DNA of 26,571 nt from the IMG/VR virus record IMGVR_UViG_2623620496_000002, positions 1-26,571 of that record. One strand, given 5' to 3'. The notes beneath the pieces were generated by a model that was not told the DNA's origin, ran no database searches, and saw nothing but the letters and a program-made list of their open reading frames with translations. Origin of the DNA: a virus. Its lineage: Duplodnaviria; Heunggongvirae; Uroviricota; Caudoviricetes. How positions within the stretch are numbered: position 1 is the stretch's first letter; every line of letters begins with the position of its first letter. This document shows, piece after piece, positions 9,416-25,901 of the stretch. The position numbers and the translations under genes were made by a program.

Positions 9416-10169
9416 TCTTCTCCTCCTCTGTTGATTGTCGCAGTCCGGATTCAAATGCCGCAGCCGCCCAGGCTGGCGGTTTAAGACCGGCTGCGCGGCG
9501 CTCCATCGTTTCACGGACCTGCTGGGCAAAAATTTCCTGATAGTCGTCACCGCGTTTTGCGCACTCTTTCTCGTAGGTACTCAATCCGGCTTCTATCAGC
9601 ATCACCGCTTCCTGAACTTCTTTCAGACCATCGATGGCCATACGACCGGAGCCTATCCAGTCGCAGTTCCCCCAGGCACTGCGTGCTTCCTGAAAGCTGA
9701 AGCGCGCTTTTGAAGGTAACGTCACCACGCGGCGAACGATGGCCTCTTCCAGCCAGCACAGAAACATCTGGCTCGCCTGACGGGATGCGACGAATTTTCG
9801 CCGCCCCATAAAGTGCGCCCACGACTCGTTCGCGCTGGCCCGTGCCGTGGAGTAGCTCATCTGGGCGTAATTCCGGGAAAGCTGCTCATACGAGACACCC
9901 AGCCCGGCAGCGATATACCGCAGCAGTGACTGCTCAAACACGGAGTAGCCGTTATCCGTGTCCTGAGCCGTCTGCAGGTTCAGTGAGTCACCCGGCATCA
10001 GGTGCGGTACTTTTGCGCCTCCCAGCCGGACCGGCGCTGCGGCGTAATACGCGGCAATTTCACCAATCCAGCCGGTCAGCCTTTCCCGCTGCTCCTGACT
10101 GTTCGCGCCCAGAATAAAATCCATCGCTGACTGCGTATCCAGCTCACTCTCAATGGTGGCGGCATACAT
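9396..10169 (-). CDS. B: portal protein gpB, C-terminal segment (gene split by inserted element)
   Basis: 257 aa ORF MYAATIESELDTQSAMDFILGANSQEQRERLTGWIGEIAAYYAAAP...EEEKSDSRAA corresponds to the C-terminal part of recalled lambda gpB (about residues 277-533); lambda-like sequence stops abruptly at 10175. Confidence 0.9.
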   Translation of the reverse strand: MYAATIESELDTQSAMDFILGANSQEQRERLTGWIGEIAAYYAAAPVRLGGAKVPHLMPGDSLNLQTAQDTDNGYSVFEQSLLRYIAAGLGVSYEQLSRNYAQMSYSTARASANESWAHFMGRRKFVASRQASQMFLCWLEEAIVRRVVTLPSKARFSFQEARSAWGNCDWIGSGRMAIDGLKEVQEAVMLIEAGLSTYEKECAKRGDDYQEIFAQQVRETMERRAAGLKPPAWAAAAFESGLRQSTEEEKSDSRAA

Positions 10170-10175
10170 CGCCTT
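10163..10175. repeat. 13-bp direct repeat at left junction of inserted element (putative att core, CATACATCGCCTT)
   Basis: CATACATCGCCTT at 10163..10175 matches CATAAATCGCCTT at 20562..20574 (12/13), the points where lambda-like B sequence ends and resumes. Confidence 0.7.
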
Positions 10176-10250
10176 TATGAAAAGACAGGAAAAAATAAAA
10201 TTTAAAAACAGTACATTACGAATGCTCAGACCTATCGTTTAAAGGAGTCG

Positions 10251-10271
10251 CAATACACACTGCAATACACG
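10251..10271. repeat. two direct copies of GCAATACAC near the left end of the element (candidate integrase or regulator binding sites)
   Basis: GCAATACAC at 10251..10259 and 10263..10271; the same motif occurs three times at the right end (20386..20438). Confidence 0.5.
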
Positions 10272-10612
10272 ATTATTTATAAGATGAGCGGCATCCGTCA
10301 TAAAGCTGGTGGATGCTTTTTCTATGCATATATGCACAGTTTTAGTGGGCGTTAATGTCGATATAGGGATCCCCATATCGAGATTGGATACCTGGCTTTT
10401 TTCCGGTTAACCTTTAATCAGGCTGGTGGGCTTTACCTGTTTTGTATGAGTGGTCATCATGACCATGTCATAACAAAAACCCCATATTCGTGGTTTTTCT
10501 GTGTCGGGCTATTCTGTCGTTGCTGTGCTGATTTGGCTGGTGGGCTGAATCATCATTACGGCGATGCAGCTATGTAGACGTTCCGGCCTCCTCAAATTGA
10601 GGATTGTGGAAG

Positions 10613-10720
10613 AATCAATGGGTTAGTCTTACTTTCCCGACATCCCCCAATGGGGGTTTTCGAAACAATCAATAGCTTAGGCTTACTTCCCCGATTTCCT
10701 GCATTGCAGGTTTTCGAAAT
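10613..10720 (+). repeat. tandem ~54-bp repeat units, each with a GC hairpin followed by TTTTCGAAA (candidate small RNA or terminator elements)
   Basis: Unit A 10613..10666 and unit B 10667..10720 both start AATCAAT and end GGTTTTCGAAA. Hairpins CCCCCAATGGGGG (10644..10656) and CCTGCATTGCAGG (10699..10711) differ by paired changes that keep the stem. A third partial unit and further hairpins follow at 10721..10828. Confidence 0.6.
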
Positions 10721-10984
10721 AATCAATGGGTTAGGCCATCGTGCAATTTTGCACTTTGCCAGCCAGCGCAATGTCGCGTTATCAGTCCTCAGATGTGAGG
10801 GATGTAGCCAGCTTTTCCCCCAGTGGGGGATATCCAGCACCGACGGCTTAACTGTGCGTGCCAGCACAAGGTAGCCTTGAACTACTTACTGCATCCCATC
10901 TTACAGGCCGTGCCTTCCTGCTTAACTTTTTGCAATGCAACAAGTCAGCCAGCGCAATTTTGCGTTATCGGGAATATCAGCAAG

Positions 10985-11266
10985 TTACCGCCGCAATCGT
11001 TCCGGCTTCTTCCACTGGTAAGTATTTTTCGCGCTCTCCCTCCGTTGTTGAGAACGGCGACGATATGCCAGCAACTCAAGGACTCTTGTTCGTATGTTGC
11101 GCATATCCACGCCGTTAAGCTCAATACCGTCACGGCGCATCACCTCAGCCACTACACGCACATAATTATCTGCGGTCACGCTGTCCGGCTGCGTGGCCTG
11201 TTCGTCATGCTGCTTGCTGATTCCACAAGCACGGCGGATTAATCGCAGTATTTCGGATTCAGTCAT
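10985..11266 (-). CDS. hypothetical protein (93 aa) downstream of satellite small-terminase homolog
   Basis: ORF MTESEILRLIRRACGISKQHDEQ... directly downstream of the TerS-like gene; no recognisable motif; weak RBS. Confidence 0.45.
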   Translation of the reverse strand: MTESEILRLIRRACGISKQHDEQATQPDSVTADNYVRVVAEVMRRDGIELNGVDMRNIRTRVLELLAYRRRSQQRRESAKNTYQWKKPERLRR

Positions 11267-11277
11267 AGCGTACTACG

Positions 11278-11820
11278 TTACTTATCTTTATTCGGCTGCA
11301 ACTTATCCGGTACGTTTCCGGCAGTTTCCATCAGATAATCGGACAGCATCAGCGGTATGTTTTCGTCAAGTTTTGCGCATGCGTTACGGGCTCTGATAAC
11401 TTCTTTTTTCAGTCCATCCAGCATAGACGGCTTCATGTCGGGAAACTTCCTTGTCATGGCAAGCGGCAGGCTGTCCATGATTGAAGAAATCTGACTCGCT
11501 AGTTTTGAAATCGCGTAGATGCAAAACTTTGTATCAATCACCTCGCCGCGTTCGCGCTCGTTTTTAAGTTCCTGCGCTTCCGCCTGGGCCGTCATTAATC
11601 TGATTCTTACGCGTAAAAGTTCATCATCATCAATCTCGCCTTTGTCGTCTGTAATCTGGTTAATTGCATTGCTAACCCGATTGTCTATTACGCTGGCAAC
11701 ATCATAAAACGCCTCGCGGCCTTTACGTTCAACGGGAGTCACTCCCCACTTGTCGAACGCTGTCGCACTTACACGGCAGCTTTGCGCCATGTTTTTTTTG
11801 TTCATCAGGTGCGATTTCAT
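11278..11820 (-). CDS. terminase small subunit homolog (Nu1-like; candidate packaging-redirection protein)
   Basis: C-terminal half aligns with the prophage Nu1 in this same window (LMTAQAEAQELKNERERGEVIDTKFCIYAISKLASQISSIMDSLPLAMTRKFPDM versus LTRAQADAQELKNARDSAEVVETAFCTFVLSRIAGEIASILDGIPLSVQRRFPEL); N-terminal region divergent. Start taken at ATG 11818..11820 (MKSHLMNKK) with GGGG RBS; the track ORF begins at an upstream GTG. Confidence 0.8.
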   Translation of the reverse strand: MKSHLMNKKNMAQSCRVSATAFDKWGVTPVERKGREAFYDVASVIDNRVSNAINQITDDKGEIDDDELLRVRIRLMTAQAEAQELKNERERGEVIDTKFCIYAISKLASQISSIMDSLPLAMTRKFPDMKPSMLDGLKKEVIRARNACAKLDENIPLMLSDYLMETAGNVPDKLQPNKDK

Positions 11821-11932
11821 CAATATCCCCACTTAAGTAATGTTTCAGGTTGGTGTATTGGCTTTATCTTTTCCTTTTTATTCATAGAGATAGAGCGAAC
11901 AACAAAACCACCACCAGCACCCGAAAAAGGCT

Positions 11933-11996
11933 CATAAATAGCGAAAACCCGCGAGGTCGCCGCCCCGTAGCCTACCGGATCGCCGGAAAGGACCCG
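11933..11996. other. satellite cos site (cohesive-end region AGGTCGCCGCCC at 11954..11965)
   Basis: CATAAATAGCGAAAACCCGCG-AGGTCGCCGCCC-CGTAGCCTACCGGATCGCCGGAAAGGACCCG closely matches the prophage cos block at 24198..24261 except inside the 12-nt core; the core is the reverse complement of the recalled lambda cohesive end GGGCGGCGACCT. Lies just upstream of the TerS-like gene, as cos lies upstream of Nu1. Confidence 0.75.
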
Positions 11997-12021
11997 CCAG
12001 CCAGAACGGGCCCTAATTTCA

Positions 12022-12405
12022 TCAACCAATCAACTTATAGCGACCATCCCGTGCATTGCGACGTACACGCTCAATCTTGAGGCATAGCGCCGCATCTGGC
12101 TTTTTTGGGACAGGTACGCGGCAATATTCAGAAGATCGAGGAATATTGTTTATCCAGTCGATCACTTCACTTAAATACCAGGCCTTACGCCCTTCCGTAA
12201 CCTGTACGCGTTCGGGGAACTCTCCGCGAGCCTCAAGGTTTAGCAATGTGCGACGGCTAAGGGTAGTAAGTTCCATCACCTGATTCATATCAACAAGGCG
12301 TTCACTTAAACGCATTTTGTCAGCAATAGCCTTTAATTCCTCTACTGCTGGATCCGGATACATCATTTCGGCAATTGGCTTAAGGTCATTGTAATGATTC
12401 TGCAT
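12022..12405 (-). CDS. putative AlpA/MerR-like helix-turn-helix DNA-binding protein
   Basis: Segment MELTTLSRRTLLNLEARGEFPERVQVTEGRKAWYLSEVIDWI resembles AlpA-family HTH; start placed at ATG 12403..12405 (MQNHYNDL) preceded by AAAGGGGGA RBS; the track ORF starts at an upstream TTG. Confidence 0.6.
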   Translation of the reverse strand: MQNHYNDLKPIAEMMYPDPAVEELKAIADKMRLSERLVDMNQVMELTTLSRRTLLNLEARGEFPERVQVTEGRKAWYLSEVIDWINNIPRSSEYCRVPVPKKPDAALCLKIERVRRNARDGRYKLIG

Positions 12406-12416
12406 TGTATCCCCCT

Positions 12417-12758
12417 TTACACACAAGCCAGCGGCTGAACAGAAATACCTGAGCCAACAAACGCGGCAACCTTTGCCGACAGTTCTTTTACAGACTCAGG
12501 CCAGTTCAGAGCATCAACATTTAAAACACCTGTCTTATAAACCTGTGCCTGTGTTTTTTTCGCTGTGTCGATTTGTACAGCGGAAACATAAACCGCTTTA
12601 CCTACGCTCGAACCATCCCATACCACCAGTGCACCTGTTGCATCTTCCTGCATCAGTGGCGTAAATGCAGGAATTACCCCTTTATTAGCTGAAAATATCC
12701 CCAGCGTAGTCACCAGTGCTTCAGTGCCAGCCATGAGTTCAGTGTAATGAGTAGCCAT
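12417..12758 (-). CDS. head decoration protein homolog (gpD-like) encoded by the satellite
   Basis: 113 aa; central region GALVVWDGSSVGKAVYVSAVQID...VYKTGVLNVDALNWPE parallels prophage gp[24 protein letters not shown]...[16 protein letters not shown]; strong RBS GGGGGAG before the ATG. Confidence 0.75.
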   Translation of the reverse strand: MATHYTELMAGTEALVTTLGIFSANKGVIPAFTPLMQEDATGALVVWDGSSVGKAVYVSAVQIDTAKKTQAQVYKTGVLNVDALNWPESVKELSAKVAAFVGSGISVQPLACV

Positions 12759-12767
12759 TGCTCCCCC

Positions 12768-13808
12768 TTAGCCAATGCGAACGGTAACAAAACGATTGAT
12801 GCGGGCCGGTATTGGCTGTGGTGCTGAATGTGTCTGCACATATTCAATAGCCGGATCACCAGGCACAATATAGTTTTTCGGTGCAAGTTCGGCTTTAGTC
12901 AGCCCCATTCGGATTAGCTCCGGATCCTGAATACCGCCATAGGCGACAATCCCCTGAAGAGCCGTATTGCCAAGCACCATCAAATCAGGATCAAGGAAAT
13001 GTTTTTCTGTTCCGTCCTCGTCGGTATAACGCCCGCTGTAAACAACAATCGCAACATCGCCCATATACCCTTTAAAACTCACCGAATCACCAAGGTCTTT
13101 AAGGGCCGTTTCCAGTTCGGAATTAGAACCACGACGGGTATCCAAAGCCTCTTTTATCGCTCTGAATGAACGGTATTTCTTCCATACATTACCACCCATA
13201 ATGATGATATTAGTGACGCCCTCACTAAATTCTGCGTAGCTCTCAATATCATCATTTGGATCAAAAGTTTCTTTATCCTTACCTGACCACTCAGTACCGC
13301 CAGACTGAGTGATGATATTTTGTGGTTTTATATTCCAGTCCAGCTCATAACGTTCAATACCATCGCCCTCAATGATATTTTTCCCCGTTGTGATTGCCTG
13401 AACAGCAAGCCATTCAATACGTGCACGAATAGCTTTAGCCTGATTTACAATCGCCTGTTTAACTTTAATATTACGCGCCCCAAAAGCATTGTATTGCTCA
13501 GGTGACACACCAGCAGGGCGCACAGCTAACTTATTTGGATCAATGCTGCTTTTCGGCTTCATATAACCTGGACGAATTGTTTTTGATTCGTATCCCTCAT
13601 CTCGTGAAACTTTACTGCCCACCATAGGAGAGCAAAACGCCGCGATCGGGATATTTGGATCGTCGATCGTATCAAGAATAATGTCTCTCGATTCAAACAT
13701 TACCGAGCGAGTGAAAAACAAACTGGTAAACAACGCATTTAATTTTTTTTGCACATCTTCAGCATTAGCCACCTGCACAAGCTGTGTAGGCGAATATAAA
13801 TCAACCAT
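12768..13808 (-). CDS. major capsid protein homolog (gpE-like) encoded by the satellite
   Basis: Aligns along its length with the prophage gpE in this window (for example QSGGTEWSGKDKETFDPNDDIESYA versus QSGGTEWSKRDKSTYDPTDDIEAYA; RSFRAIKEALDTRRGSNSELETALKDLG versus RSFKAVKEKLDTRRGSHSELETAVKDLG). Start placed at ATG 13806..13808 (MVDLYSPTQLVQVA, aligning to gpE MSMYTTAQLLAANE) with AAAGAGGA RBS; the upstream extension in the ORF track is rejected. Confidence 0.85.
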   Translation of the reverse strand: MVDLYSPTQLVQVANAEDVQKKLNALFTSLFFTRSVMFESRDIILDTIDDPNIPIAAFCSPMVGSKVSRDEGYESKTIRPGYMKPKSSIDPNKLAVRPAGVSPEQYNAFGARNIKVKQAIVNQAKAIRARIEWLAVQAITTGKNIIEGDGIERYELDWNIKPQNIITQSGGTEWSGKDKETFDPNDDIESYAEFSEGVTNIIIMGGNVWKKYRSFRAIKEALDTRRGSNSELETALKDLGDSVSFKGYMGDVAIVVYSGRYTDEDGTEKHFLDPDLMVLGNTALQGIVAYGGIQDPELIRMGLTKAELAPKNYIVPGDPAIEYVQTHSAPQPIPARINRFVTVRIG

Positions 13809-13982
13809 ACGCATCCTCTTTGCATTCATTAAAAATAATTGTGGATATATGCTATCACCGATATTTGTCATGCGAATACATGCAACCGAGTGCAATGTTG
13901 TATAAAGTTTTGGGATAACAACTTCAGCGCGGATAATTAGTGTTAATATCTTCACTCCCTTTGGTCGGGATTTATGTAGCAT

Positions 13983-14014
13983 GCCGGAAAATTTATTTTT
14001 TTCCGGCCTTTTTT
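13983..14014 (+). terminator. rho-independent terminator-like hairpin between ssb and capsid-homolog genes
   Basis: GCCGGAAAA-TTTATTT-TTTTCCGGC (9-bp stem, 13983..14007) followed by CTTTTTT on the plus strand and flanked by an A-run on the other side; may act bidirectionally. Confidence 0.45.
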
Positions 14015-14025
14015 ATTGGCAATAT

Positions 14026-14475
14026 TTAAAACGGAATATCATCTCCCCATTGCTCATTTTCTCCCACTGGTGGATGGCTTCCTTGCTGATCTGCCTGTTG
14101 TTTTGCTCTGTTCAGTGCGTCAGTAGCCTGACCCTGTTGACCTTTTTTGCCGCCCGGTCGCACCGTTCGCGCACTGATTACGCTGTCTGCGATAACCTGC
14201 CAGCCCTGCCGCGTTTCACCGTTCTGGCCTGTCCACTGTCTTACCTGCATGTTACCCGCCACGCTCACCAGTTCGCCTTTGTGGTGTTTTGCCAGTGCGT
14301 CGGCCTGTCTGCCAAACGCCAGGACGGATAACCACATCGTCGCCGTTCCGTCATCTGCCTGGCTGCACGGAAGGGGGACCGCCATACTAGCCATCGTCAT
14401 TTGTGTACCCTTGCTGGTGGTCTTTAACTGCGGGTCAGCCACCAGCCGCCCGTAAGCCGCTATCTGTGCTGTCAT
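14026..14475 (-). CDS. ssb: single-stranded DNA-binding protein
   Basis: 149 aa, glycine/glutamine-rich linker and acidic C-terminal tail ending DDIPF, the characteristic SSB tip. Confidence 0.85.
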   Translation of the reverse strand: MTAQIAAYGRLVADPQLKTTSKGTQMTMASMAVPLPCSQADDGTATMWLSVLAFGRQADALAKHHKGELVSVAGNMQVRQWTGQNGETRQGWQVIADSVISARTVRPGGKKGQQGQATDALNRAKQQADQQGSHPPVGENEQWGDDIPF

Positions 14476-14723
14476 GCTGTCTGCTCTCCAGTTTTAACGT
14501 TGATGGTTGTCACCTGTTCCGCTTCGGCAATCTCCCGTTCTGTCAGCGTGGCAAAGTTTGCCGCCGTCGTGGTCATGAATGCGCTTATCAGTTCGGGGTG
14601 TGCTTTCGCGTATCCTTCCCCAGCGTGGCGGTCTATCGTTCTGATTGCCACCTTTAAGGCGTGCTCTGTCATGTCTAACGCTTTATATTTTGGCGCTGTC
14701 TTATCTCTGGTTTTTCTGGTCAT
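14472..14723 (-). CDS. hypothetical protein (83 aa)
   Basis: ORF between the iteron cluster and ssb; stop overlaps the ssb start; no recognisable motif. Confidence 0.5.
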   Translation of the reverse strand: MTRKTRDKTAPKYKALDMTEHALKVAIRTIDRHAGEGYAKAHPELISAFMTTTAANFATLTEREIAEAEQVTTINVKTGEQTA

Positions 14724-14732
14724 TCCTCACTG

Positions 14733-14926
14733 CTCCCCACTTTTACTACCCACTTTTTGAAATTACCCAACGTCTCCCCACTTCTTTTTTTTGTGATTCT
14801 AACGTGATGTTTTTCAATGTGTTTTTTATTCCCCACTTTTTGGGGTATATACAGGTGGGAAAGTGGGGAATCACGTTTCAATTTTGTTAAATTCCCCACA
14901 CTCCCCACTTTTACTACCCACTTTTT
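14733..14926. repeat. iteron cluster, putative satellite replication origin
   Basis: Perfect 26-bp direct repeat CTCCCCACTTTTACTACCCACTTTTT at 14733..14758 and 14901..14926, plus additional CCCCAC(T)TTT copies (14774, 14831, 14893) and an inverted copy AAGTGGGG (14861..14868), immediately downstream of the replicase gene. Confidence 0.65.
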
Positions 14927-16340
14927 ACAGTGGGCGCACGTCATCACCGTCAATAGCAATAACGCCATCACCTTCCAGCTTGTACAGCCAGCGCCGGAAG
15001 TGTTTCATCTCATACCCCAGCTTTTTCATATCATCGCGCAACAACGGAATAGTGCATTTATCTCCGCGCTGTGTGCGTGAACGGATACAGCCCCATAGCG
15101 CGGCATGATTCTCCGTCTTGTTCCCGGCTTCCTCGATGCGCTCCAGTTCAACGGGTGGGCGCGGCTTATCCACAACAACCAGCGACGTGATTAACTCCCC
15201 GTCAGTGTCGGTAAAAAGCTCCACCACACGTAAATCGTATGCGGCCTCTTTCAGTTCCTCCGCGTCCTTCATTTTTGTGCAGGAGATAACCAGGGCTTCA
15301 CTGTCTGCACCTTCACGGCGAATACGGTATTCAGCGTCCAGAGATGCACGAAATGCACTGGAACCACGCGCCCCCTTTGTTTCATCCTTGCCGGAATGGT
15401 GAACCACCAGCACCGTGGCCCCTGTGCGGCGTTTCAGTTCGTCACATCCACGGATAAACGCCCCCATATCCCGCGCGTCATTTTCATCATTACCGCCAAA
15501 GCAACGCGCCAGCGTATCAAGAATAATCATGCGTACCGGTTTACCCGTTTCCCGTTCAACCTGGCGGGAAGCGATGACCATTTCATCAACATCAAGCGGG
15601 ACTGCCGGAAAAATCGGGCGGTTTACCAGGTACAGATTTTCCACCCGTTCATCATTAACGATTTCCCATGCCTTGATACGGCGGGGGACACCAATGCCAC
15701 CTTCACCGACAACATACATCACCGAACCATGCGCCACCCTGCGGCCTCCCCAGTGACGGCCAGTGGCAACATGACACGCCCAGGAACACGCGAGGAACGA
15801 TTTATAGGAACCGCTCGCGCCGTATGTGCTGCACAATGAATTAGCCGGAATCACGCCCTTAACGACATAATCAAGCTGTGTGTCGTACCCTGCAGATCCA
15901 ATGCTCATTGGTAGCGTGGTTTTTCGCTGGCTGTATTGCTCGTCAGTAAGTATTTCCCCGCGCTCTGCCTGTTCGCGGATCCGTTGCAGGTAGTCGTGCC
16001 AGTTCTCCAGCTTCTGGCTGTGCATTCCATCAGGGTAATAATTCGCATCCCGTACACCTGCCGCCGCCAGCTTTTGCCCGATAGCATTAATATTTGACGG
16101 CTTGATGTGGCCTGCCTTGTACAGCCGGACACAATAGCGACCATCGTCGATAATTTTCAGGTCTGCCAGTTCGTCAAGCTGGCTGTCTCCCAGCCATACA
16201 GGCGGGACGTTATCACCAGCAAGTCGCCCGTCCTGTTCCTGCCACTGTTTCGCGTGCGCCCAGGCATCACTACCCGCAAAAATAATGACTTCGGTCATTT
16301 TGTCGTGTGGCTGTTTTTTTAAGTTCGGTGCCAGTTTCAT
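14925..16340 (-). CDS. replication initiation protein (primase/helicase-like, RecA-like ATPase domain)
   Basis: 471 aa; Walker A-like YGASGSYKSF and Walker B-like RMIILDTLARCF, then VLVVHHSGKDETKGARGSSAF typical of RepA/DnaB-like ATPases; start overlaps upstream ORF stop (ATGA). Confidence 0.8.
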   Translation of the reverse strand: MKLAPNLKKQPHDKMTEVIIFAGSDAWAHAKQWQEQDGRLAGDNVPPVWLGDSQLDELADLKIIDDGRYCVRLYKAGHIKPSNINAIGQKLAAAGVRDANYYPDGMHSQKLENWHDYLQRIREQAERGEILTDEQYSQRKTTLPMSIGSAGYDTQLDYVVKGVIPANSLCSTYGASGSYKSFLACSWACHVATGRHWGGRRVAHGSVMYVVGEGGIGVPRRIKAWEIVNDERVENLYLVNRPIFPAVPLDVDEMVIASRQVERETGKPVRMIILDTLARCFGGNDENDARDMGAFIRGCDELKRRTGATVLVVHHSGKDETKGARGSSAFRASLDAEYRIRREGADSEALVISCTKMKDAEELKEAAYDLRVVELFTDTDGELITSLVVVDKPRPPVELERIEEAGNKTENHAALWGCIRSRTQRGDKCTIPLLRDDMKKLGYEMKHFRRWLYKLEGDGVIAIDGDDVRPL

Positions 16341-16636
16341 TTTTTGCCCCTGAATGCGTTAATCATGTTTTTCATTTTCTGAATATTTGCCCGTGCCTTT
16401 GCGTTGCTGGTGGGCTGTTTGCGTGGTGTGGCCTGTATCAGTGAAAAATCACGCCGGAACTGATAAGCAGGCATCACGCAGTCATAGCCGTACCCATCAC
16501 GGCGGTAAGTAACGCACCGCCCCGCCACGCTTTTAATCGTTACCGTGCCACCGTAGTTATCCCGGAAAATATCGCCGGGGCGGATTTCAGGCCGAGGGAG
16601 ACCACTGGCAGTAAAGCCAGAATTTTTCTGTTTCAT
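16337..16636 (-). CDS. hypothetical protein (99 aa)
   Basis: ORF whose stop overlaps the replicase start, suggesting translational coupling; no recognisable motif. Confidence 0.55.
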   Translation of the reverse strand: MKQKNSGFTASGLPRPEIRPGDIFRDNYGGTVTIKSVAGRCVTYRRDGYGYDCVMPAYQFRRDFSLIQATPRKQPTSNAKARANIQKMKNMINAFRGKK

Positions 16637-16642
16637 GTTTTT

Positions 16643-16861
16643 TTACTCCAGAGGCAGATTTTTAGCGGCGAGTTCAATATCAGATGTCAGAGAAACCTGT
16701 GTATTTGCCAGGTCTAACAACAAAGAAATAAGAATTTCCTCTCTGCTATCGGATTCATCGGTGCTAAGGCTGTTCATCCACATATTGACGACTTCCCTGA
16801 TTTTTTTCGCAGAGTGCAGGGCTTCAAATGCCAGGTCTTCAATATCATGTTTATTTCGCAT
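16643..16861 (-). CDS. hypothetical protein (start uncertain)
   Basis: Track ORF 16643..16927; internal ATG at 16859..16861 (MRNKHDIE) chosen to limit overlap with the upstream gene. Confidence 0.4.
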   Translation of the reverse strand: MRNKHDIEDLAFEALHSAKKIREVVNMWMNSLSTDESDSREEILISLLLDLANTQVSLTSDIELAAKNLPLE

Positions 16862-17063
16862 AATCGCCCCCGCGTAACTGGTCTGCACTAACACCCGATT
16901 TAGTGAGCATTTCAGAAAATCCCGCAAGAGTGCTGATAAATTCGTTTTCCATTAAACGGCACTGGCATTTAACCCGGCCTTTTTCCAGATACACCAGTAC
17001 GCGCCACGTATAATCTGACGGCACATTCAGCACTACAGATAAGTGCGCTTCATTATTATTCAT
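16851..17063 (-). CDS. hypothetical protein (70 aa)
   Basis: Compact ORF in the small-gene cluster between the regulatory region and the replicase. Confidence 0.45.
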   Translation of the reverse strand: MNNNEAHLSVVLNVPSDYTWRVLVYLEKGRVKCQCRLMENEFISTLAGFSEMLTKSGVSADQLRGGDYAK

Positions 17064-17292
17064 GGCTCACCACCTCCATATCAGCCATGATAATTTTGCT
17101 GGCCTCATTCAGTGCCATATCAGCACTAAGTTGCATTACAGCCAGTGAATGAGGAACGAAAGCCCCGGCATATTCTGTTTCACTGGTAGCGTGCTTATGC
17201 GCCCTGTCCGCGATAACAGAAATATCAATCAGCGCATCAATCAGTGTTTTGATTGCTTCGGCGGCTGCGTCCGGACGGGTGTTATTGCACAT
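17056..17292 (-). CDS. hypothetical protein (78 aa)
   Basis: Compact ORF overlapping neighbours by a few nt, same orientation as the cluster. Confidence 0.45.
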   Translation of the reverse strand: MCNNTRPDAAAEAIKTLIDALIDISVIADRAHKHATSETEYAGAFVPHSLAVMQLSADMALNEASKIIMADMEVVSHE

Positions 17293-17488
17293 GGTGCACC
17301 CCCTGACGAATACGGGCGGCGAATACCATCACGCAGCCAGCCGGTGATTGCTGACGGGCTTCCTGTTCGCTGGTGGCCTCAATGGTAATCACGCGCGGTT
17401 GTGCCGTACTCAGGGCGATAAAACGCCAGATGTATTTATTCAGGTTGTGCGAGCCCCGCCCTTGCGGGTGTGTGGTATGATTTCTCAT
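17282..17488 (-). CDS. hypothetical small protein (68 aa), possibly Icd-like
   Basis: C-terminal 68 codons of track ORF 17282..18274, starting ATG 17486..17488 (MRNHTTHPQGRG...); first gene downstream of the divergent operator region. The Icd-like label is a weak recollection, not verified. Confidence 0.4.
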   Translation of the reverse strand: MRNHTTHPQGRGSHNLNKYIWRFIALSTAQPRVITIEATSEQEARQQSPAGCVMVFAARIRQGVHHVQ

Positions 17489-17585
17489 AGCTACCTCGAT
17501 ACTGTTGCTATCGTTGGTGGTTAGAAGCCCGGTTAGTGTTAGCGCACTGCCGGGTTTCGTCGTTTCTGCACCTTGCACCAACAAG

Positions 17586-17637
17586 GTGTTGAACACCAAT
17601 TTAAACCCAGGTGTTGAACACGTCAAGTGTTGAACAC
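17586..17637. promoter_or_regulatory. three copies of palindromic operator GTGTTGAACAC in a divergent promoter region
   Basis: GTGTTGAACAC at 17586..17596, 17611..17621 and 17627..17637, between the minus-strand start at 17488 and the plus-strand start at 17688. Confidence 0.6.
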
Positions 17638-17687
17638 TTGTTTTTTTTCCTGCATACTGCATTTGTTTTTTGTGAGGGGTACACAAC

Positions 17688-17867
17688 ATGGCGACAAAAG
17701 CAGTAAACGCAAAATCACAAACAGTTGCGGCAAGGGTTCCGCATGAAGTTATGAACAATGTTGAGGCGGTAAAAATGCCTGGTGAAAGTACAGGGCAGTT
17801 TGTAACAGCAGCATTAAAGCGAGAAGTTGAATACCGCCAGCGACGCAAGGCTAAAGAGCAAGAATAA
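17688..17867 (+). CDS. putative ribbon-helix-helix type small DNA-binding regulator (59 aa)
   Basis: ATG 17688 preceded by GAGGGG RBS; translation MATKAVNAKSQTVAARVPHEVMNNVEAVKMPGESTGQFVTAALKREVEYRQRRKAKEQE; below the 60-aa cutoff of the ORF track; directly downstream of the operator repeats. Confidence 0.55.
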   Translation: MATKAVNAKSQTVAARVPHEVMNNVEAVKMPGESTGQFVTAALKREVEYRQRRKAKEQE

Positions 17868-17924
17868 TCACTATCAGCGCTGTGGTGTGAGGTACTCCGG
17901 CGCATTGCTTTACAGGTCGGCACT

Positions 17925-18134
17925 ATGAGCAAAAAATACCTATCCACTGAAGAGATTTTCGCAGAACAACGAAGATTGCTTTTACAGAGCATTGTTGCAC
18001 GCCAGAAAGAAAAGGCACACGCTAAACAAATGCCACCAAATACAGAACCAGCGCCTACAAAATTTGCGCTTGATGAGTTTCTCAATAAACAGCCCCGGGT
18101 AATGAAAGCTAACAGGAACCGCCCACCAGGCTGA
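17925..18134 (+). CDS. hypothetical protein (69 aa), second gene of plus-strand regulatory operon
   Basis: ORF MSKKYLSTEEIFAEQRRLLLQSIVARQKEKAH... between the RHH gene and the plus-strand terminator. Confidence 0.5.
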   Translation: MSKKYLSTEEIFAEQRRLLLQSIVARQKEKAHAKQMPPNTEPAPTKFALDEFLNKQPRVMKANRNRPPG

Positions 18135-18200
18135 TCACATTGCCCACCAGCCGCAAATGTGGCATTGTTGGTGATGCTTTTGTTTTCCCTTGTTCCCACT

Positions 18201-18229
18201 GGCGACCCTTTTGCGGTCGCCTTTGTTTT
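18201..18229 (+). terminator. rho-independent terminator
   Basis: GGCGACC-CTTTTGC-GGTCGCC stem-loop (18201..18221) followed by TTTGTTTTG. Confidence 0.6.
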
Positions 18230-18230
18230 G

Positions 18231-18809
18231 TCACTGAATGCGGTTACCAAAGTAAAACTCAGGCTGATATTCACGTATCAGCGTTTTTTCTTCTTCCTCC
18301 AGCTCACGCTTTTTGCGCTTACATGCCTGTAGCTCCCTCCCCTTCTCGCTGGCACTTATTTGATATTGCTCTTTACGGCGGGAAAAATCCTGTAATGCAC
18401 CCCACGGGATACCATAAGCCCCCGTTTTTCTGATACCCGGTATCACATTTCTGAATACCCAGTTACTGAAACGATGAGCAAATGTGCCAGGCGTCGTTGC
18501 TTTGCGGCTGCGGGCTATTAGTTTGTAGAAACCTGACTCAGAGATAATTCTCATATTCTGATTTCCTCCTGGGGTGTAAGTTAAATTTACTCCCTTTTCA
18601 TCATCATCAAGCATCTGCAACGCCGTACGCGAATTGGTTAGTTCCAGCACAGCACAAACATCTTTTGCAACAAACCACGGATCGCCGTTCAGATACACCA
18701 CACGAACGTTCACACTATCAAAGCGCAGAACGACGAGATCACGAATATCGCAGAATTTTTTCACTGGACGAGCGTACCCCTTGCCCGTCACGGCAATATT
18801 TTTATTCAT
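18231..18809 (-). CDS. Bro-N domain protein (phage antirepressor-like)
   Basis: N-terminal VRVVYLNGDPWFVAKDVCAVLELTNSRTALQMLDDDEKG matches the Bro-N motif; C-terminal part charged and coiled-coil-like. Confidence 0.75.
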   Translation of the reverse strand: MNKNIAVTGKGYARPVKKFCDIRDLVVLRFDSVNVRVVYLNGDPWFVAKDVCAVLELTNSRTALQMLDDDEKGVNLTYTPGGNQNMRIISESGFYKLIARSRKATTPGTFAHRFSNWVFRNVIPGIRKTGAYGIPWGALQDFSRRKEQYQISASEKGRELQACKRKKRELEEEEKTLIREYQPEFYFGNRIQ

Positions 18810-18865
18810 CGCGTTTTTACCTTATAGACAAAAAACCCCTCGTGATGAGGGGCATTATTTACTGG

Positions 18866-19123
18866 TTATTGCTGTTTTGTTTTTCCAGGTTTCCATCCAG
18901 GATGCCACTCACCACGGATCCATGCCTGAACCTCTGAAAGTCGATACCCTGCAGCACGTTCACCGATCTTGATACGTCGCGGGAATTTACCTGCCTGCTC
19001 CATTTTCCAGCGTGTTGAGTTTGCCAGCGTGGTAAGTGCTATGCACTCTTTTTCACGAATGAACCGATCAATGTCCTTCATTGTGCGCAAATCGTTTTCA
19101 TCAACAAGAGAATAAATTGCCAT
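18866..19123 (-). CDS. alpA: AlpA-family transcriptional regulator / excisionase-like protein
   Basis: 85 aa, HTH segment with WKMEQAGKFPRRIKIGERAAGYRLSEVQAWI typical of AlpA; immediately downstream of the integrase gene. Confidence 0.85.
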   Translation of the reverse strand: MAIYSLVDENDLRTMKDIDRFIREKECIALTTLANSTRWKMEQAGKFPRRIKIGERAAGYRLSEVQAWIRGEWHPGWKPGKTKQQ

Positions 19124-19124
19124 A

Positions 19125-20366
19125 TCACACCACCTCTTTATTAAGCTCGATAACGTTGTTGTTAAATCCTGCTATCGTATTAAGGTAATTAACCCATATA
19201 TTAAGCACCTCAAGTTTTTTCTTTATATGCCTGCTTTTATTGTAAACACCAGCAACCCCTTTCACTTTATGACCTAAAAGAAGTTCGACAATATAAGGAT
19301 CCGCCCCCATATCATTAAGCGTAGTGGAAAATGTGCGCCTGAAATCATGTATGCACCACAAGCCATTAGTATCATGACCAAGACGCCTGCATATTCTGTT
19401 TGCAGCCCCTGTTATTGTCGCCCTTTGCAAAGCACAACCGACAACATAACCGCGATTTTTTGTTTCTGCGTAAAGATTAACGATCCATTGTTTTATTCCG
19501 TCAGGAACAGGCCTTACTATAGCCTCCTTGTTTTTGCTGTGCTCTTTTGGGACTGTCCATACCCAGTTTTTTAAATCCCATTCGTCCCAGGTGGATAGCC
19601 TCGCCTCCTGCTGTCGGCAACCAAACACCAGGCAGATAACCATTATTCTTCGGTTATATATTGATGACAGAGTTAGCAAATTATTACCGTAAGCATAAGA
19701 CCATACATCAGCGGTTTCATTGATATTAAGAACGCGATCCCTTATACCGGATGAGCGCCCGACATAACTTACGTTAATATCTCCAAAGGGATCGCACGCG
19801 ATGTATTGCCTGACGCGACAAAAACGCAACGCCTGTTTGATATCAAGAAAAATTGCACCAGACATAACAGGCGCATTTTTTTTGATCCTGTCAAAGACGG
19901 TAAGCCATGTGTGTAATTTGCACTGTTCTATAGCCATATCACCGATATAGGGGAAGATATGCTTTTCAAATCGTTTTATTAAATATTCATGCTCTTTTCT
20001 GGCTGTTGTGGCGTGATTGTCGTACCAGTAAAACAGCGCATCCCTTACGGTCACTGGTTGCATAGTTTTTTCGGCAGCAAGTTTTATTTGCCTGCGGGGG
20101 TCCAGATTTTCAGCCAGCCATTCACGGCACTGATCACGCATGCGCCTGGCCGTTGCAAGAGACATGTCAGGATAGCGACCAAGTGTAAGCCATACCGGAG
20201 GGGATTCCCTGCCACCAAGACGATAGTAAAAAACAAAGCTGATCCCCCCAACCATGCTTACACGCACAGACAACCCGCGCCCATCCGCTATTGTTTTTTG
20301 TTTGTCCTGCCGTTTTCCGACAAGACTCTTTAACAGTTTGTCACTGAGTTTGTTTTCAATAGCCAT
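19125..20366 (-). CDS. int: tyrosine-type site-specific integrase (P4-like)
   Basis: 413 aa; N-terminal arm-binding-like region, C-terminal catalytic residues HDFRRTF...LLGHKVKGVAGVYNKS with the conserved tyrosine. Confidence 0.95.
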   Translation of the reverse strand: MAIENKLSDKLLKSLVGKRQDKQKTIADGRGLSVRVSMVGGISFVFYYRLGGRESPPVWLTLGRYPDMSLATARRMRDQCREWLAENLDPRRQIKLAAEKTMQPVTVRDALFYWYDNHATTARKEHEYLIKRFEKHIFPYIGDMAIEQCKLHTWLTVFDRIKKNAPVMSGAIFLDIKQALRFCRVRQYIACDPFGDINVSYVGRSSGIRDRVLNINETADVWSYAYGNNLLTLSSIYNRRIMVICLVFGCRQQEARLSTWDEWDLKNWVWTVPKEHSKNKEAIVRPVPDGIKQWIVNLYAETKNRGYVVGCALQRATITGAANRICRRLGHDTNGLWCIHDFRRTFSTTLNDMGADPYIVELLLGHKVKGVAGVYNKSRHIKKKLEVLNIWVNYLNTIAGFNNNVIELNKEVV

Positions 20367-20385
20367 TAAAAGCCCTCAAGAGATT

Positions 20386-20438
20386 TGCAATACACACCCA
20401 TCCCGATCGCCAATTTGCAATACACATTGCAATACACA
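20386..20438. repeat. three direct copies of TGCAATACACA upstream of int (candidate arm-type or regulatory sites)
   Basis: TGCAATACACA at 20386..20396, 20416..20426 and 20428..20438; same core as the left-end copies at 10251..10271. Confidence 0.55.
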
Positions 20439-20514
20439 AAACCGCGAAAAACTGGAAGGGTGATGAACGGTCATCAAAAGCATGGAAAACGACATTCCAG
20501 ACGCAGCAAGGGTT

Positions 20515-23495
<2,981 letters not shown>

Positions 23496-23521
<26 letters not shown>

Positions 23522-24041
23522 TCAGCAACCCCGGTATCAGTTCATCCAGCGCGGCTGCTTTGTTCATGGCTTTGATGATATCCCGTTTCAGGAAATCAAC
23601 ATGTCGGTTTTCCAATTCCGGAAAACGCCGCTGCACCGACAGGGGGATCCCGTCGAGAATACTGGCAATTTCACCTGCGATCCGCGACAGCACGAAAGTA
23701 CAGAATGCAGTTTCCACCACTTCAGCGGAGTCTCTGGCATTTTTCAGCTCCTGTGCGTCGGCCTGCGCACGCGTAAGTCGATGGCGTTCGTACTCAATAG
23801 TCCCTGGCTGGAGATCTGTCTCGCTGGCCTGCCGCAGTTCTTCAACTTCCCGGCGCAGCTTTTCGTTCTCAATTTCAGCATCCCTTTCGGCATACCATTT
23901 TATGGCGGCGGCAGAGTCATAAAGCACCTCATTACCCTTGCCACCACCCCGCAGAACGGGCATTCCCTGCTCCTGCCAGTTCTGAATGGTACGGATACTC
24001 GCGCCGAAAATGTCAGCCAGCTGCTTTTTGTTGACTTCCAT
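23496..24041 (-). CDS. Nu1: terminase small subunit Nu1
   Basis: 181 aa ORF MEVNKKQLADIFGASIRTIQNWQEQGMPVLRGGGKGNEVLYDS..., near-identical to recalled lambda Nu1. Confidence 0.95.
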
Positions 24042-24197
24042 TGTTCATTCCACGGACAAAAACAGAGAAAGGAAACGACAGAGGCCAAAAAGCCCGTTTT
24101 CAGCACCTGTCGTTTCCTTTCTTTTCAGGGGGTGTTTTAAATAAAAACATTAAGTTACGGCGAAGAAGAACGGAAACGCCTTAAACCGGAAAATTTT

Positions 24198-24261
24198 CAT
24201 AAATAGCGAAAACCCGCGCGCCTTCCGCCCCGTAACGCTCCGGATCGCCGGAAAGGACCCG
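24198..24261. other. prophage cos region (cohesive-end core at 24219..24230 differs from the canonical lambda-type core)
   Basis: CATAAATAGCGAAAACCCGCG-CGCCTTCCGCCC-CGTAACGCTCCGGATCGCCGGAAAGGACCCG, upstream of Nu1; flanks match the recalled lambda cos region but the 12-nt core reads CGCCTTCCGCCC rather than AGGTCGCCGCCC. Confidence 0.7.
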
Positions 24262-24405
24262 AAAATGATAATACATATCAATTACACTTAGAGGGGGGGT
24301 AATTTGTTCACATCAACACTCCGGACCCAATGGCCTTCTACTCTGGTTTTGCCATAAAATAGTCCTGATACATATTCATATCAGTTAGTCATATACGGAA
24401 AAAAT

Positions 24406-24732
24406 ATGGGCATTACTATTTTCAGCAGTGAAATACAGGATGTTGATAGCGAAGCGATGTACAAGAGTTGGCTAGCGACCCATTCCGATGGATTCGTTAT
24501 TAATCTGCTTAAGTCGGCCAGCGGGAAAGGCAGAAAAAGTGATGCCAGATTTACGCGGATTCATCGAGCCTCATGCAAATCAATCAACCCGTTAATCAGT
24601 CCTAAAAATCACGCCAGCTTTACTACTGGCCGATACCAAAAAGTATGTGTTCTTACGCTTGACGAGGCCGAGTCCACCGCAGGCCAACTAACAGGACTGC
24701 CAACCATCCAGAGATGTCATTGGTGTATATAA
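24406..24732 (+). CDS. hypothetical protein (108 aa), AT-rich moron between lysis genes and cos
   Basis: Plus-strand ORF in an AT-rich block opposite in orientation to the late operon; contains Cys/His residues (HRASC...CHWC); no recognisable family. Confidence 0.45.
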   Translation: MGITIFSSEIQDVDSEAMYKSWLATHSDGFVINLLKSASGKGRKSDARFTRIHRASCKSINPLISPKNHASFTTGRYQKVCVLTLDEAESTAGQLTGLPTIQRCHWCI

Positions 24733-24759
24733 GATACTGCCGTTACGATGGGCCTGCCC

Positions 24760-24786
24760 ATTGTGATGGCAATAAAAAAACCGCCA
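24760..24786 (-). terminator. rho-independent terminator downstream of the membrane moron
   Basis: Minus strand reads AACCGCC-TTTT-GGCGGTT followed by TTTTTTTATT. Confidence 0.6.
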
Positions 24787-24799
24787 AAAGGCGGTTAAT

Positions 24800-25288
24800 C
24801 TAACCGAGTGGATTATTTAACTTTTTCTGAGTCTGCTCATACTGACTTAGCGGAAAGTGTATCACTTTATTCGCTTCCAATGTATCAACTTTACCTAACA
24901 ACAGTTTTCTTACTTTAATTAAATATACCCTCACATCTGGTGCACCGGGGGTTTTCGAAAGAATATCTGAAAGCTCACTAGCCAACTCTGGAGGTAACCA
25001 CAGAAATGCTTCATAGGTTAACTGTCTTAATCTAACTCTGTCATCAGGATGGCTAATCCATAAGGCAAGCAACTCAGCAATCAGAGCTGACTTAAGCCTG
25101 ATTTCTCTTAAGTTTTTTTCGCTCTCTAACTGTCGCTGATGAGATAACTTAATTGACTCAAGAAGTTCATTGTACTCATGTTGAACCGATGAAGTTATTC
25201 TCGCAGCCACTAACCTTGGGACTACAAACATCACACCGACACACAGAATAACCCAAATGACTCTTTCTAAATTAATGATATTATCCAT
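24800..25288 (-). CDS. hypothetical membrane protein (162 aa), AT-rich moron
   Basis: N-terminal hydrophobic helix VIWVILCVGVMFVVPRLVAA; AT-rich composition unlike flanking phage genes; has its own terminator. Confidence 0.55.
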   Translation of the reverse strand: MDNIINLERVIWVILCVGVMFVVPRLVAARITSSVQHEYNELLESIKLSHQRQLESEKNLREIRLKSALIAELLALWISHPDDRVRLRQLTYEAFLWLPPELASELSDILSKTPGAPDVRVYLIKVRKLLLGKVDTLEANKVIHFPLSQYEQTQKKLNNPLG

Positions 25289-25364
25289 AATAATGTCTCA
25301 AAGCCATTAAAAACATGATGAGAATAACCTATATTTTCCTTAACTTATATAGAGAAATAGCTAT

Positions 25365-25901
25365 CTATAATCTGCTATTCTCTATGTCCCTGATACCCGC
25401 CAACTGACTATTCGCCTTCTCAATAGCTGCCAGCAGCGGGCTAATCCACAGAATGGCCTGACAATACGTTATTGAGCGGGTGGTAACGGCGCTATCACTG
25501 GCTGCGTCAACGTTCCTGGAATCGGTGTGCATTGCGCTGGCACGTAAACGGTTCGCGTAGTTGAGCAGCCCACCAGCGACATCAGCAGGAACAGGCATAT
25601 CACAGGTTTTTTCACGACGGAGAATCTCTCGGTATTCGATAACAGTTTTCTCGGTGCCGGTATCAATCAGCGAGTTAAGACGGTTGGTGTTCTCTGCTAC
25701 CAGGTTAAACCGGTTGAAGTTGAAGGCTTGGGTAGCTATGACGGTCGCCTGTAGCGCGTTGTCGCTGCGCAGTACCCGGATGTCACTTTCAGATATGGTC
25801 AGTGCTGCATTGCTGCGTGCCAGCAGAACACAGAGCACCGCGATGATAATTACGACAACCACCAGCAGAACCGCAATAATCGCAATTTTGTTGGGTTTCA
25901 T
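25365..25901 (-). CDS. Rz: i-spanin (Rz-like inner-membrane spanin)
   Basis: 178 aa, N-terminal transmembrane segment IAIIAVLLVVVVIIIAVLCVLL then a charged periplasmic domain; start overlaps endolysin stop (ATGA); immediately downstream of the endolysin. Confidence 0.7.
   Translation of the reverse strand: MKPNKIAIIAVLLVVVVIIIAVLCVLLARSNAALTISESDIRVLRSDNALQATVIATQAFNFNRFNLVAENTNRLNSLIDTGTEKTVIEYREILRREKTCDMPVPADVAGGLLNYANRLRASAMHTDSRNVDAASDSAVTTRSITYCQAILWISPLLAAIEKANSQLAGIRDIENSRL
25469..25666 (-). CDS. Rz1: o-spanin (Rz1-like lipoprotein) embedded in the +1 frame of the i-spanin gene (start uncertain)
   Basis: Embedded ORF with lipobox-like LVGC followed by proline-rich PIPGTLTQPVIAPLPP, the typical embedded Rz1 architecture. 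Confidence 0.5.
   Translation of the reverse strand: MIPAPRKLLSNTERFSVVKKPVICLFLLMSLVGCSTTRTVYVPAQCTPIPGTLTQPVIAPLPPAQ

Follow-up and report, generated by a model that had tools for sequence, protein, structure and literature searches.

A lambda-type cos site and an N15-type small terminase as the predicted packaging module of a satellite embedded in a lambdoid prophage of Escherichia coli

By what means could a satellite lodged inside a prophage direct the packaging enzyme of that prophage to its own DNA? The question is raised by IMG/VR record IMGVR_UViG_2623620496_000002, of which we analyzed the whole stretch of 26,571 nucleotides (positions 1 to 26,571), referred to here as the window. 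It holds a lambda-like prophage of Escherichia coli with a satellite inside its portal gene B, and the satellite carries a cos site followed by a gene for a small terminase (TerS). We consider it probable, at roughly 0.6, that this cos and this gene form the packaging module of a satellite of the phage-inducible chromosomal island (PICI) type inside a lambdoid helper, in which the satellite TerS would bind its own cosB and recruit the helper large terminase (TerL), gpA. An earlier note, made from the same DNA, had called this the architecture expected for a satellite that redirects a helper terminase. That view is supported by the PICI gene set of the element, by the conservation of cos and terS, and by the position of terS in the slot that rppA takes in the island EcCICFT073.

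The satellite cos site is of the lambda type

The cos sites of the satellite and of the resident prophage comprise the following features, with cos positions counted as in lambda.

11954..11965, minus strand: core of cosN, predicted to form the 12-nt cohesive end GGGCGGCGACCT and the same as lambda bp 1-12
11932..11953, minus strand: conserved stretch next to cosN (cos bp 13-34), with 22/22 positions as in lambda and in the resident prophage
11966..11996, minus strand: left flank of cosN and cosQ-containing block (GGGTCCTTTCCGG), 27/31 against the prophage
24197..24261, minus strand: cos of the resident prophage, comprising cosQ and cosN; its core at 24219-24230 is the variant GGGCGGAAGGCG
~24042-24196, minus strand: lambda-type cosB of the resident prophage, following its cos

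On these alignments, window 11932-11996 is a lambda-type cos, with a lambda-type cosN and an upstream cosQ (GGGTCCTTTCCGG). The earlier note had stated that the satellite and prophage blocks match in their flanks and that the 12-nt core is the reverse complement of the lambda cohesive end, and both statements hold. Satellite 11932-11953 is identical to prophage 24197-24218 over 22/22 positions, satellite 11966-11996 matches prophage 24231-24261 at 27/31 with a 22-nt run, CCGGATCGCCGGAAAGGACCCG, and the core GGGCGGCGACCT equals bases 1-12 of lambda NC_001416 (12/12). The segment GGGTCCTT is kept in lambda, N15, EcCICFT073 and all the satellite loci examined. The pattern CATAAATAGCGAAAACCCGCG-N12-CGTA has exactly two occurrences in the window; shuffles gave an expectation of 0. 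A second satellite cos, as in EcCICFT073, was not found in the satellite at ≤1 mismatch.

The prophage core GGGCGGAAGGCG has lambda-like sequence on both flanks and is identical to the lambda and satellite core at 7/12 positions, the five differences all lying within bp 7-12. The same variant is found in phage YDC107_1 (L003). Copies of the prophage in sister strains carry the lambda core, and their gpA and Nu1 differ by only 5 and 3 residues, respectively. Since sister prophages with the lambda core have a gpA that differs at only 5 residues, these data suggest that both cosN cores are tolerated.

The satellite cosB resembles the single-R3 cosB of N15

Between the core and the ATG of terS at 11820 lie 133 bp, in which two features were delimited.

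11896..11921, minus strand: proposed TerS-binding site (R3 equivalent), cos bp 45-70, GGTGCTGGTGGTGGTTTTGTTGTTCG, at the position and in the register of N15 R3
11821..11895, minus strand: leader from the R3-like element to the terS start; its ribosome-binding site, GGGGA, lies 6 nt upstream of the ATG

The earlier note held that these ~130 bp bear no resemblance to the region between the prophage cos and Nu1. This stands for the layout: the R3-I1-R2-R1 array is absent, and with it the lambda-type order of R3, IHF site, R2 and R1, whereas prophage bp 35-145 are identical to lambda at 102/111 positions and keep R3, I1, R2 and R1. It does not stand for the sequence as a whole. Satellite bp 35-145 match lambda at 49/111 positions in an ungapped comparison (44%; shuffle mean 29.6, p ~2e-4), and offset 0 is the best. 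Because this identity exceeds the shuffle mean and peaks at offset 0, the satellite cosB is a diverged homologue of lambda cosB and not unrelated DNA.

The cosB of N15, in the work of Feiss and co-workers from 2015 reviewed by Murialdo and Feiss (PMC9026076), has no IHF site and only one R3, which linker scanning placed at bp 48-60. Where this R3 lies, the satellite has an element of the form (GGT)3-TTTT-GTTGTT. Within GGTGCTGGTGGTGGTTTTGTTGTTCG, (GGT)3 is the sequence GGTGGTGGT at bp 51-59, and it is followed by TTGTTGTTCG at bp 61-70, with a further TTGTTGTT at bp 61-68. N15 bp 48-60 read GAGGTTGTTGTTT; 8/13 positions of this mapped R3 are common to the satellite, and GGTGGTGGT stands in the same triplet register as N15 GTTGTTGTT (GTT GTT GTT). 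The satellite cos thus has the make-up of an N15-type single-R3 cos. Neither an IHF consensus nor a repeated R copy was found in the satellite cosB. A remote site, rR2, has been proposed for N15; it has no counterpart in the satellite, where no second R-like element was found in or near terS. The 18-mer GGTGGTGGTTTTGTTGTT occurs once in the window and is invariant in 9/10 E. coli satellite loci, while the adjoining bases vary. A scan of 10900-12500 gave no sigma-70 promoter consensus, and neither a promoter nor a terminator between cos and terS. From position and register we infer that TerS would bind at cos bp 45-70.

The satellite TerS is a full-length member of the Nu1 family

The small terminase of the satellite was compared with that of the prophage, whose large subunit is listed with them.

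11278..11820, minus strand: satellite small terminase gene (terS), 180 amino acids; Pfam Phage_Nu1, PHROG 57, RefSeq 'terminase small subunit'; its product combines an N15 gp1-type winged helix-turn-helix (HTH) domain (~residues 6-52) with central helices and a C-terminal region like that of Nu1
23496..24041, minus strand: resident Nu1, small terminase, 3 residues different from lambda Nu1, with a Pfam match
21596..23521, minus strand: resident gpA, large terminase (by annotation; N-terminus lambda/N15-like), presumed to be the enzyme borrowed by the satellite

The start of terS is likely the ATG at 11820 (cos bp 146), which is also the RefSeq start and is preceded by GGGGA. The protein scores 82.3 bits against Pfam Phage_Nu1 (PF07471, cut-off 30), although only profile positions 80-162 are covered, and its match to PHROG 57 ('terminase small subunit') extends over residues 5-180. 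It is 35% identical to the resident Nu1 end to end (E = 3e-34), and its closest phage relative is N15 gp1, an established small terminase, to which it aligns over the full length with 46% identity. Since no homologue with more than 60% identity was present among 50,697 phage records, the TerS family is satellite-specific above that level.

According to the earlier note, TerS shares its C-terminal region with Nu1 and differs from it at the N-terminus. The first part is borne out, as the C-terminal region is homologous (39-49% identity); the second needs refining, as the N-terminal part is divergent (34%) and yet a homologous winged HTH. This DNA-binding domain aligns in register with those of Nu1 and N15 gp1, and it is 60% identical to the latter versus 34% to resident Nu1, with an AFDKWGV stretch and a short wing common to TerS and N15 gp1. 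The DNA-binding domain and cosB are of N15 type, not merely 'different'. Over the C-terminal half (residues 72-167), TerS is equally distant from N15 gp1 and resident Nu1 (46% each), two proteins that are ~79% identical to each other in that half. Its central part is ~49-50% identical to resident Nu1 (Nu1 residues 85-140), and its last 37-41 residues (Nu1 141-181) are 39-41% identical to resident Nu1 and 39% to N15 gp1. The last 41 residues of lambda Nu1 form the TerL (gpA)-binding region, and the motif ..LDE.IP..LS.Y.. that aligns with it is retained in TerS.

An AlphaFold2 model of TerS (mean pLDDT 67.5, pTM 0.32) is extended, with helix, turn, helix, beta-hairpin and helix over residues 8-58, then four long helices. 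A Foldseek search of the model against the PDB returned nothing at E ≤ 0.001 (best, the MerR-like CbpM, E = 0.26), and the TerS sequence had no relative among PDB chains. No NCBIfam model covers TerS, the 93-amino-acid protein encoded after it, the satellite capsid protein or the decoration protein. Judged by its profile matches, its alignments and its rate of change (see below), TerS is classed here as a full-length Nu1-family small terminase under purifying selection.

TerS takes the place of RppA

The packaging role of rppA and cos in EcCICFT073 has been proven experimentally (Fillol-Salom 2019; PMC6739421). The start of locus L007 (loci fetched for comparison carry L numbers) holds the late end of that island, in the order capsid, decoration, 137-amino-acid gene, cos, RppA (144 amino acids), 93-amino-acid gene and phoQ. 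The satellite has a gene of the last-but-one kind directly after terS.

10985..11266, minus strand: 93-amino-acid gene directly downstream of terS, PHROG 1561 match

Its product is 76% identical to the EcCICFT073 protein encoded downstream of rppA. Because the gene order is the same and the 93-amino-acid proteins are 76% identical, terS can be placed in the rppA slot of EcCICFT073. This basic protein always follows the packaging-specificity gene, be that gene terS or rppA. We considered it as a mimic of the gpA N-terminus and rejected the idea, as it has no similarity to gpA.

Rpps are proteins of 144-153 amino acids without the TerL-binding C-terminal region, so that they need the helper TerS as a bridge (PMC6739421, PMC9026076). 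The satellite protein could act likewise, forming mixed complexes with helper Nu1 that are barred from the helper cosB and steered to the satellite cosB, with Nu1 as the link to gpA. Its place in the rppA slot of a syntenic backbone speaks for this, the 50% identity of its central region to Nu1 (85-140) makes mixed oligomers conceivable, and the mechanism is the only one proven for E. coli cos PICIs (PMC6739421). The proteins themselves point the other way. BLASTP gave no alignment between TerS and RppA, and profile-sequence and profile-profile comparisons were negative beyond a non-significant HTH alignment (hhalign probabilities of 0.4% and 2.5%, the latter for the two family profiles and confined to the HTH). 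TerS passes Pfam Phage_Nu1 while RppA fails it (14.7 bits), and at 180 amino acids TerS is longer than any Rpp, aligns with Nu1 to the C-terminal end and keeps the C-terminal region that Rpps do not have (PMC9026076). On this comparison TerS does not qualify as an Rpp, and we regard an Rpp-like action as unlikely. The idea that Rpps are truncated descendants of the TerS family was likewise unsupported by BLASTP, profile-sequence and profile-profile searches, all of which were negative.

EcCICFT073 and the satellite are alike in backbone and gene order, in their lambda-type cosQ and cosN, in a foreign cosB whose one short element lies around bp 50-65, and in a protein with an N-terminal winged HTH encoded just after cos. 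They differ in the element itself, since EcCICFT073 has ACCACCACC at bp 55-63 (the proposed R3 equivalent) and the satellite its complement GGTGGTGGT at bp 51-59, in the opposite orientation, and in the gene start, at bp 102 for rppA and bp 146 for terS. They also differ in predicted dependence: the satellite would need the helper TerL only, whereas the Rpp of EcCICFT073 needs the helper TerS.

The cos and terS module is conserved in three backbones

Relatives of TerS formed 183 clusters, all called small terminase where named, which we traced to genomes. The portal-embedded loci are the window and L002, joined by L021 and L022, which were fetched without flanks and share the portal-type upstream gene and the C-terminal allele. 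A second group consists of phoQ-adjacent chromosomal PICIs with the EcCICFT073 backbone, namely L014-L017, where phoQ was confirmed; L023-L026, for which no flanks were fetched, have the upstream gene of the EcCICFT073 type. The third, L010-L013, comes from other Enterobacteriaceae and sits in capsid gene E. The cos and terS module is kept in all three backbones.

All 12 aligned loci have in common cosQ, the conserved bp 13-34, a terS start at bp 140-149 and an element (GGT)2-5 TTTT GTTGTT, which in the distant group is GGTGGTGGTGTTGTT. The lambda cosN core is present in 11/12 satellite loci. The exception, L026 (E. coli O26:H11 11368), has the cohesive-end variant GGGCGGAGACCT, which departs from that core only at bp 7. 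In the cosB element (cos bp 45-59), GGT is repeated three times in L014 and five times in the otherwise near-identical L015-L017, where the extra units move both GTTGTT and the start of terS by 6 bp with respect to cosN.

The terS reading frame is intact at every locus examined, with a dN/dS of ~0.2, and the DNA-binding domain is nearly invariant within E. coli. By megablast, the cosB and terS unit was found in 731/5426 complete E. coli genomes and the RppA unit in 97/5426; the Rpp figure is a minimum, as RppC-like genes have diverged beyond the reach of megablast. Variation within the TerS family is greatest at the C-terminal tip, which has two alleles: KLDENIP.MLSDYL, closer to the Nu1 tip, in the window, L002, L021 and L022, and RVADNLPQILADYL in L014 and L023-L026. 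With so small a sample, the alleles serve as a lead only.

These patterns bear on two further explanations. The first is that cos and terS are a functionless remnant of late genes captured from a phage. PICIs and helper-embedded PICIs (HE-PICIs) are known to capture helper late-gene clusters (PMC10111431), and the capsid genes of PICIs are reported as dispensable for transfer. A remnant is nevertheless hard to reconcile with a reading frame intact at all loci examined under a dN/dS of ~0.2, a cosN core exact in 11/12 loci, a terS spacing that varies only within bp 140-149, the presence of the module in 731 genomes, and the absence of a close source copy from the 50,697 phage records. We consider it highly improbable.

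The second is that the satellite cos is cut by unmodified helper Nu1 and gpA, with TerS dispensable for packaging and mainly interfering with the helper or serving another role. Plasmids with the EcCICFT073 cos, which has a foreign cosB, were moved by lambda and phi80 at reduced efficiency (PMC6092414), and the cosQ block, cosN flanks and bp 13-34 of the satellite match those of the helper (its core matches lambda and is 5/12 off that of the prophage). By contrast, N15 DNA, with its R3-only cosB, cannot be packaged by lambda (PMC9026076). Furthermore, the conserved cosB element and the DNA-binding domain travel together across three backbones, which would be unexpected for an unused site, and purifying selection acts over the whole of TerS. 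We give this explanation little credence.

Proposed packaging mechanism

The reading that we prefer, a satellite TerS that binds its own cosB and recruits helper gpA, can be laid out as a series of steps. Excised and replicated satellite DNA would carry one cos per 10.4-kb unit. As cosQ and cosN are of the lambda type, helper gpA could nick and terminate at the satellite cos. The satellite TerS would read the single N15-like R3 element through its N15 gp1-type winged-HTH domain, and its central and C-terminal Nu1-like regions would assemble with helper gpA and position it on the satellite cosN. Satellite concatemers would then be packaged into particles built by the helper, and a unit of 10.4 kb would imply multimers in full-size heads (four units make 41.6 kb). 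The helper small terminase would be unnecessary as a bridge, unlike for the Rpp of EcCICFT073. The satellite has the same orientation as the late operon of the helper, and transcription of that operon could therefore run on into the satellite late genes, as proposed for HE-PICIs (PMC10111431). The sequence anatomy, homologies, conservation and synteny are observed; from them we infer that gpA would be bound, that cutting would occur at 11954-11965, and that there may be some interference with helper packaging.

Several points weigh against this reading. The C-terminus of TerS has diverged, and its compatibility with helper gpA is assumed: the last 41 residues are 39% identical to resident Nu1, a distance similar to that between the 21-type TerS and lambda Nu1 (32%), and the latter two are not known to be interchangeable for TerL binding. 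Confidence in the structure model is no more than moderate, and no PDB fold matched it significantly. With a core that differs from that of the satellite at 5/12 positions, this prophage is perhaps neither the natural helper nor the optimal one. The N15-type domain may also recognize the helper R3 and not discriminate against the helper genome; since lambda DNA is reportedly packaged by the N15 terminase (PMC9026076), redirection need not be exclusive. Finally, the TerS-encoding PICIs of IHE3034 and 18098 were not transferred on inducing the resident prophages (PMC6092414).

Comparison with other packaging systems

Lambda and the satellite share the cohesive end, bp 13-34, the cosQ block and the small terminase family PF07471. 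They differ in the R3-I1-R2-R1 array, of which the satellite has none, in the start of terS (bp 191 in lambda versus bp 146), and in the recognition helix, which is different in TerS and is accompanied by a shorter wing and linker than in lambda Nu1.

N15 is alike in having a single R3-type element of G-K-T triplets at bp 48-60, without an IHF consensus or R2/R1. It differs as a complete phage with its own TerL, the cohesive end GGGCGGCGTCCG and a gene 1 that starts at bp 89. The C-terminal half of its gp1 is also much closer to Nu1 (~79% identity) than that of the satellite TerS (46%). Its terminase reportedly packages lambda DNA, while lambda cannot package N15 DNA (PMC9026076).

The logic of a satellite-supplied TerS is shared with the pathogenicity islands of Staphylococcus aureus (SaPIs) that use pac sites, in which the satellite TerS recognizes satellite DNA and pairs with the helper TerL. 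SaPIs differ in headful (pac) packaging, an unrelated TerS family, Gram-positive hosts and a separate protein, Ppi, that blocks the helper TerS. Among Gram-negative PICIs, some encode TerS, including those of E. coli IHE3034 and 18098 (Fillol-Salom et al. 2018; PMC6092414), and SatelliteFinder counts terS as a PICI core component. HE-PICIs (PMC10111431) resemble the satellite in that they lie within a lambdoid late gene and point in its direction, and the satellite has each of their zones (integration, Bro, replication and late). The model element of that work, 11capE, is described as having no terS and 258 bp in common with the helper cos region at 90% identity (PMC10111431); here the shared stretch is ~64 bp and the cosB is foreign. 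A satellite terS is not discussed in that paper.

The satellite within its prophage

The element as a whole, and the gene that precedes its packaging module, are as follows.

10163..20574, minus strand: whole satellite (helper-embedded PICI), unit length 10,399 bp, bounded by 13-bp core repeats
12022..12405, minus strand: AlpA-family HTH gene directly upstream of cos, the last before the packaging module, with a match to Pfam Phage_AlpA

The 13-bp att core AAGGCGAT(G/T)TATG is present at 10163-10175 and 20562-20574, in two copies 10,399 bp apart with one mismatch. Lambda B nt 1-835 align with window 21396-20562 and nt 823-1602 with 10175-9396, so that portal gene B is split at lambda B nt 823-835, which is the 13-bp core, and precise excision of the satellite would regenerate an intact portal gene. 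The two portal fragments match Pfam Phage_portal_2 at profile positions 2-242 and 238-354, and the HE-PICI catalogue lists a portal insertion group B:Phage_portal_2:240-243, with which this site agrees (Tommasini, Mageeney, Williams 2023; PMC10111431). A pair of GCAATACAC repeats, 10,167 bp apart, had first been taken as the att core, and mapping onto lambda B gave AAGGCGAT(G/T)TATG instead. The GCAATACAC motifs are repeated just inside both satellite ends (10250-10270 and 20387-20437) and probably serve as arm-type sites of the integrase or represent the 'doubled motif' reported for HE-PICI attP; they do not form the crossover core.

All the relevant genes lie on the minus strand, and the satellite core genes are co-oriented with the late operon. 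That operon runs leftwards from 24261 with cos, Nu1, gpA, W and the first 278 codons of B, and picks up at 10175 with the remainder of B, then C, D, E and the tail genes. In between, the satellite has an integrase, AlpA, a Bro-N protein, small open reading frames, a RepA-type helicase, SSB, an E-like capsid and a D-like decoration gene, followed by the second AlpA-family HTH gene, cos, the TerS-like gene and the 93-amino-acid gene. SatelliteFinder defines a PICI by int, an alpA-type regulator, a primase/replicase, a capsid-related gene and terS, and excludes further structural genes as well as lysis genes. Each of these components was found, with RepA as the replication gene, and Pfam and PHROG matches together with the annotation revealed no portal, TerL, tail or lysis genes within 10176-20561. 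The element is a helper-embedded PICI of the type described in 2023 (PMC10111431); its integrase was assessed by Pfam domains.

Stretch 10200-20500 of the satellite is 100% identical in E. coli strains CFSAN064035 and 22AR0322, where the prophage around it is ~98% identical to that of the window, so that the window derives from a third strain. In CFSAN064035 (L001 7195-9499), the helper major capsid gene E is disrupted by IS621, while the satellite there, which has an E-like capsid gene of its own, is identical to that of the window. The prophage stretch from cos to the lysozyme gene (24280-25980) differs from the sister strains and may be a variable cargo spot; its open reading frames at 24406-24732 (+), 24800-25288 (-) and 25365-25901 (-) have no Pfam match.

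Two sets of repeats were observed in the satellite. Near its terS-side end, at 10583-10744, are three tandem 54-nt repeats (65-72% identity), in each of which AATCAATGGGTTAG comes after a short palindrome (e.g., CCTCAAATTGAGG). Of the loci fetched, only those with this portal-embedded satellite have these repeats, which match no Rfam family; a scan of the entire satellite gave none at gathering thresholds. Direct repeats also lie at 14733-14927, just downstream of the RepA-type helicase gene, and consist of two copies of CTCCCCACTTTTACTACCCACTTTTT and three copies of a 19-nt unit spaced 83-85 bp apart. PICI replication origins are reported to have such a position, downstream of the helicase gene.

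Significance for E. coli cos satellites

Already described are PICIs embedded in their helpers, PICI cos sites that join a foreign cosB to the cosN and cosQ of lambda, and the concept of a satellite TerS that redirects packaging through a recognition site of its own. In the searchable literature, we found no account of the N15-type nature of this TerS and cosB, of terS replacing rppA in its slot, or of a functional test. We put forward, tentatively and as a doubtful proposition for now, that a full-length N15-type satellite TerS, and not an Rpp, may be the main route for E. coli cos satellites, bypassing the helper TerS and binding TerL directly. The strongly variable C-terminal tip, set against a nearly invariant DNA-binding domain and cosB, might then record matching to different helper TerLs.

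Rpp is the only worked-out mechanism by which cos-type islands of E. coli steal lambda-like packaging, and it needs the helper small terminase. The cos and terS module is several times commoner than the RppA type in complete E. coli genomes, including those of O157, O26 and O145, and it predicts another dependency, on the helper large terminase only. It would thus be a natural system for learning how a single R3-type site positions a lambda-type TerL, and which residues set the pairing of TerS with TerL.

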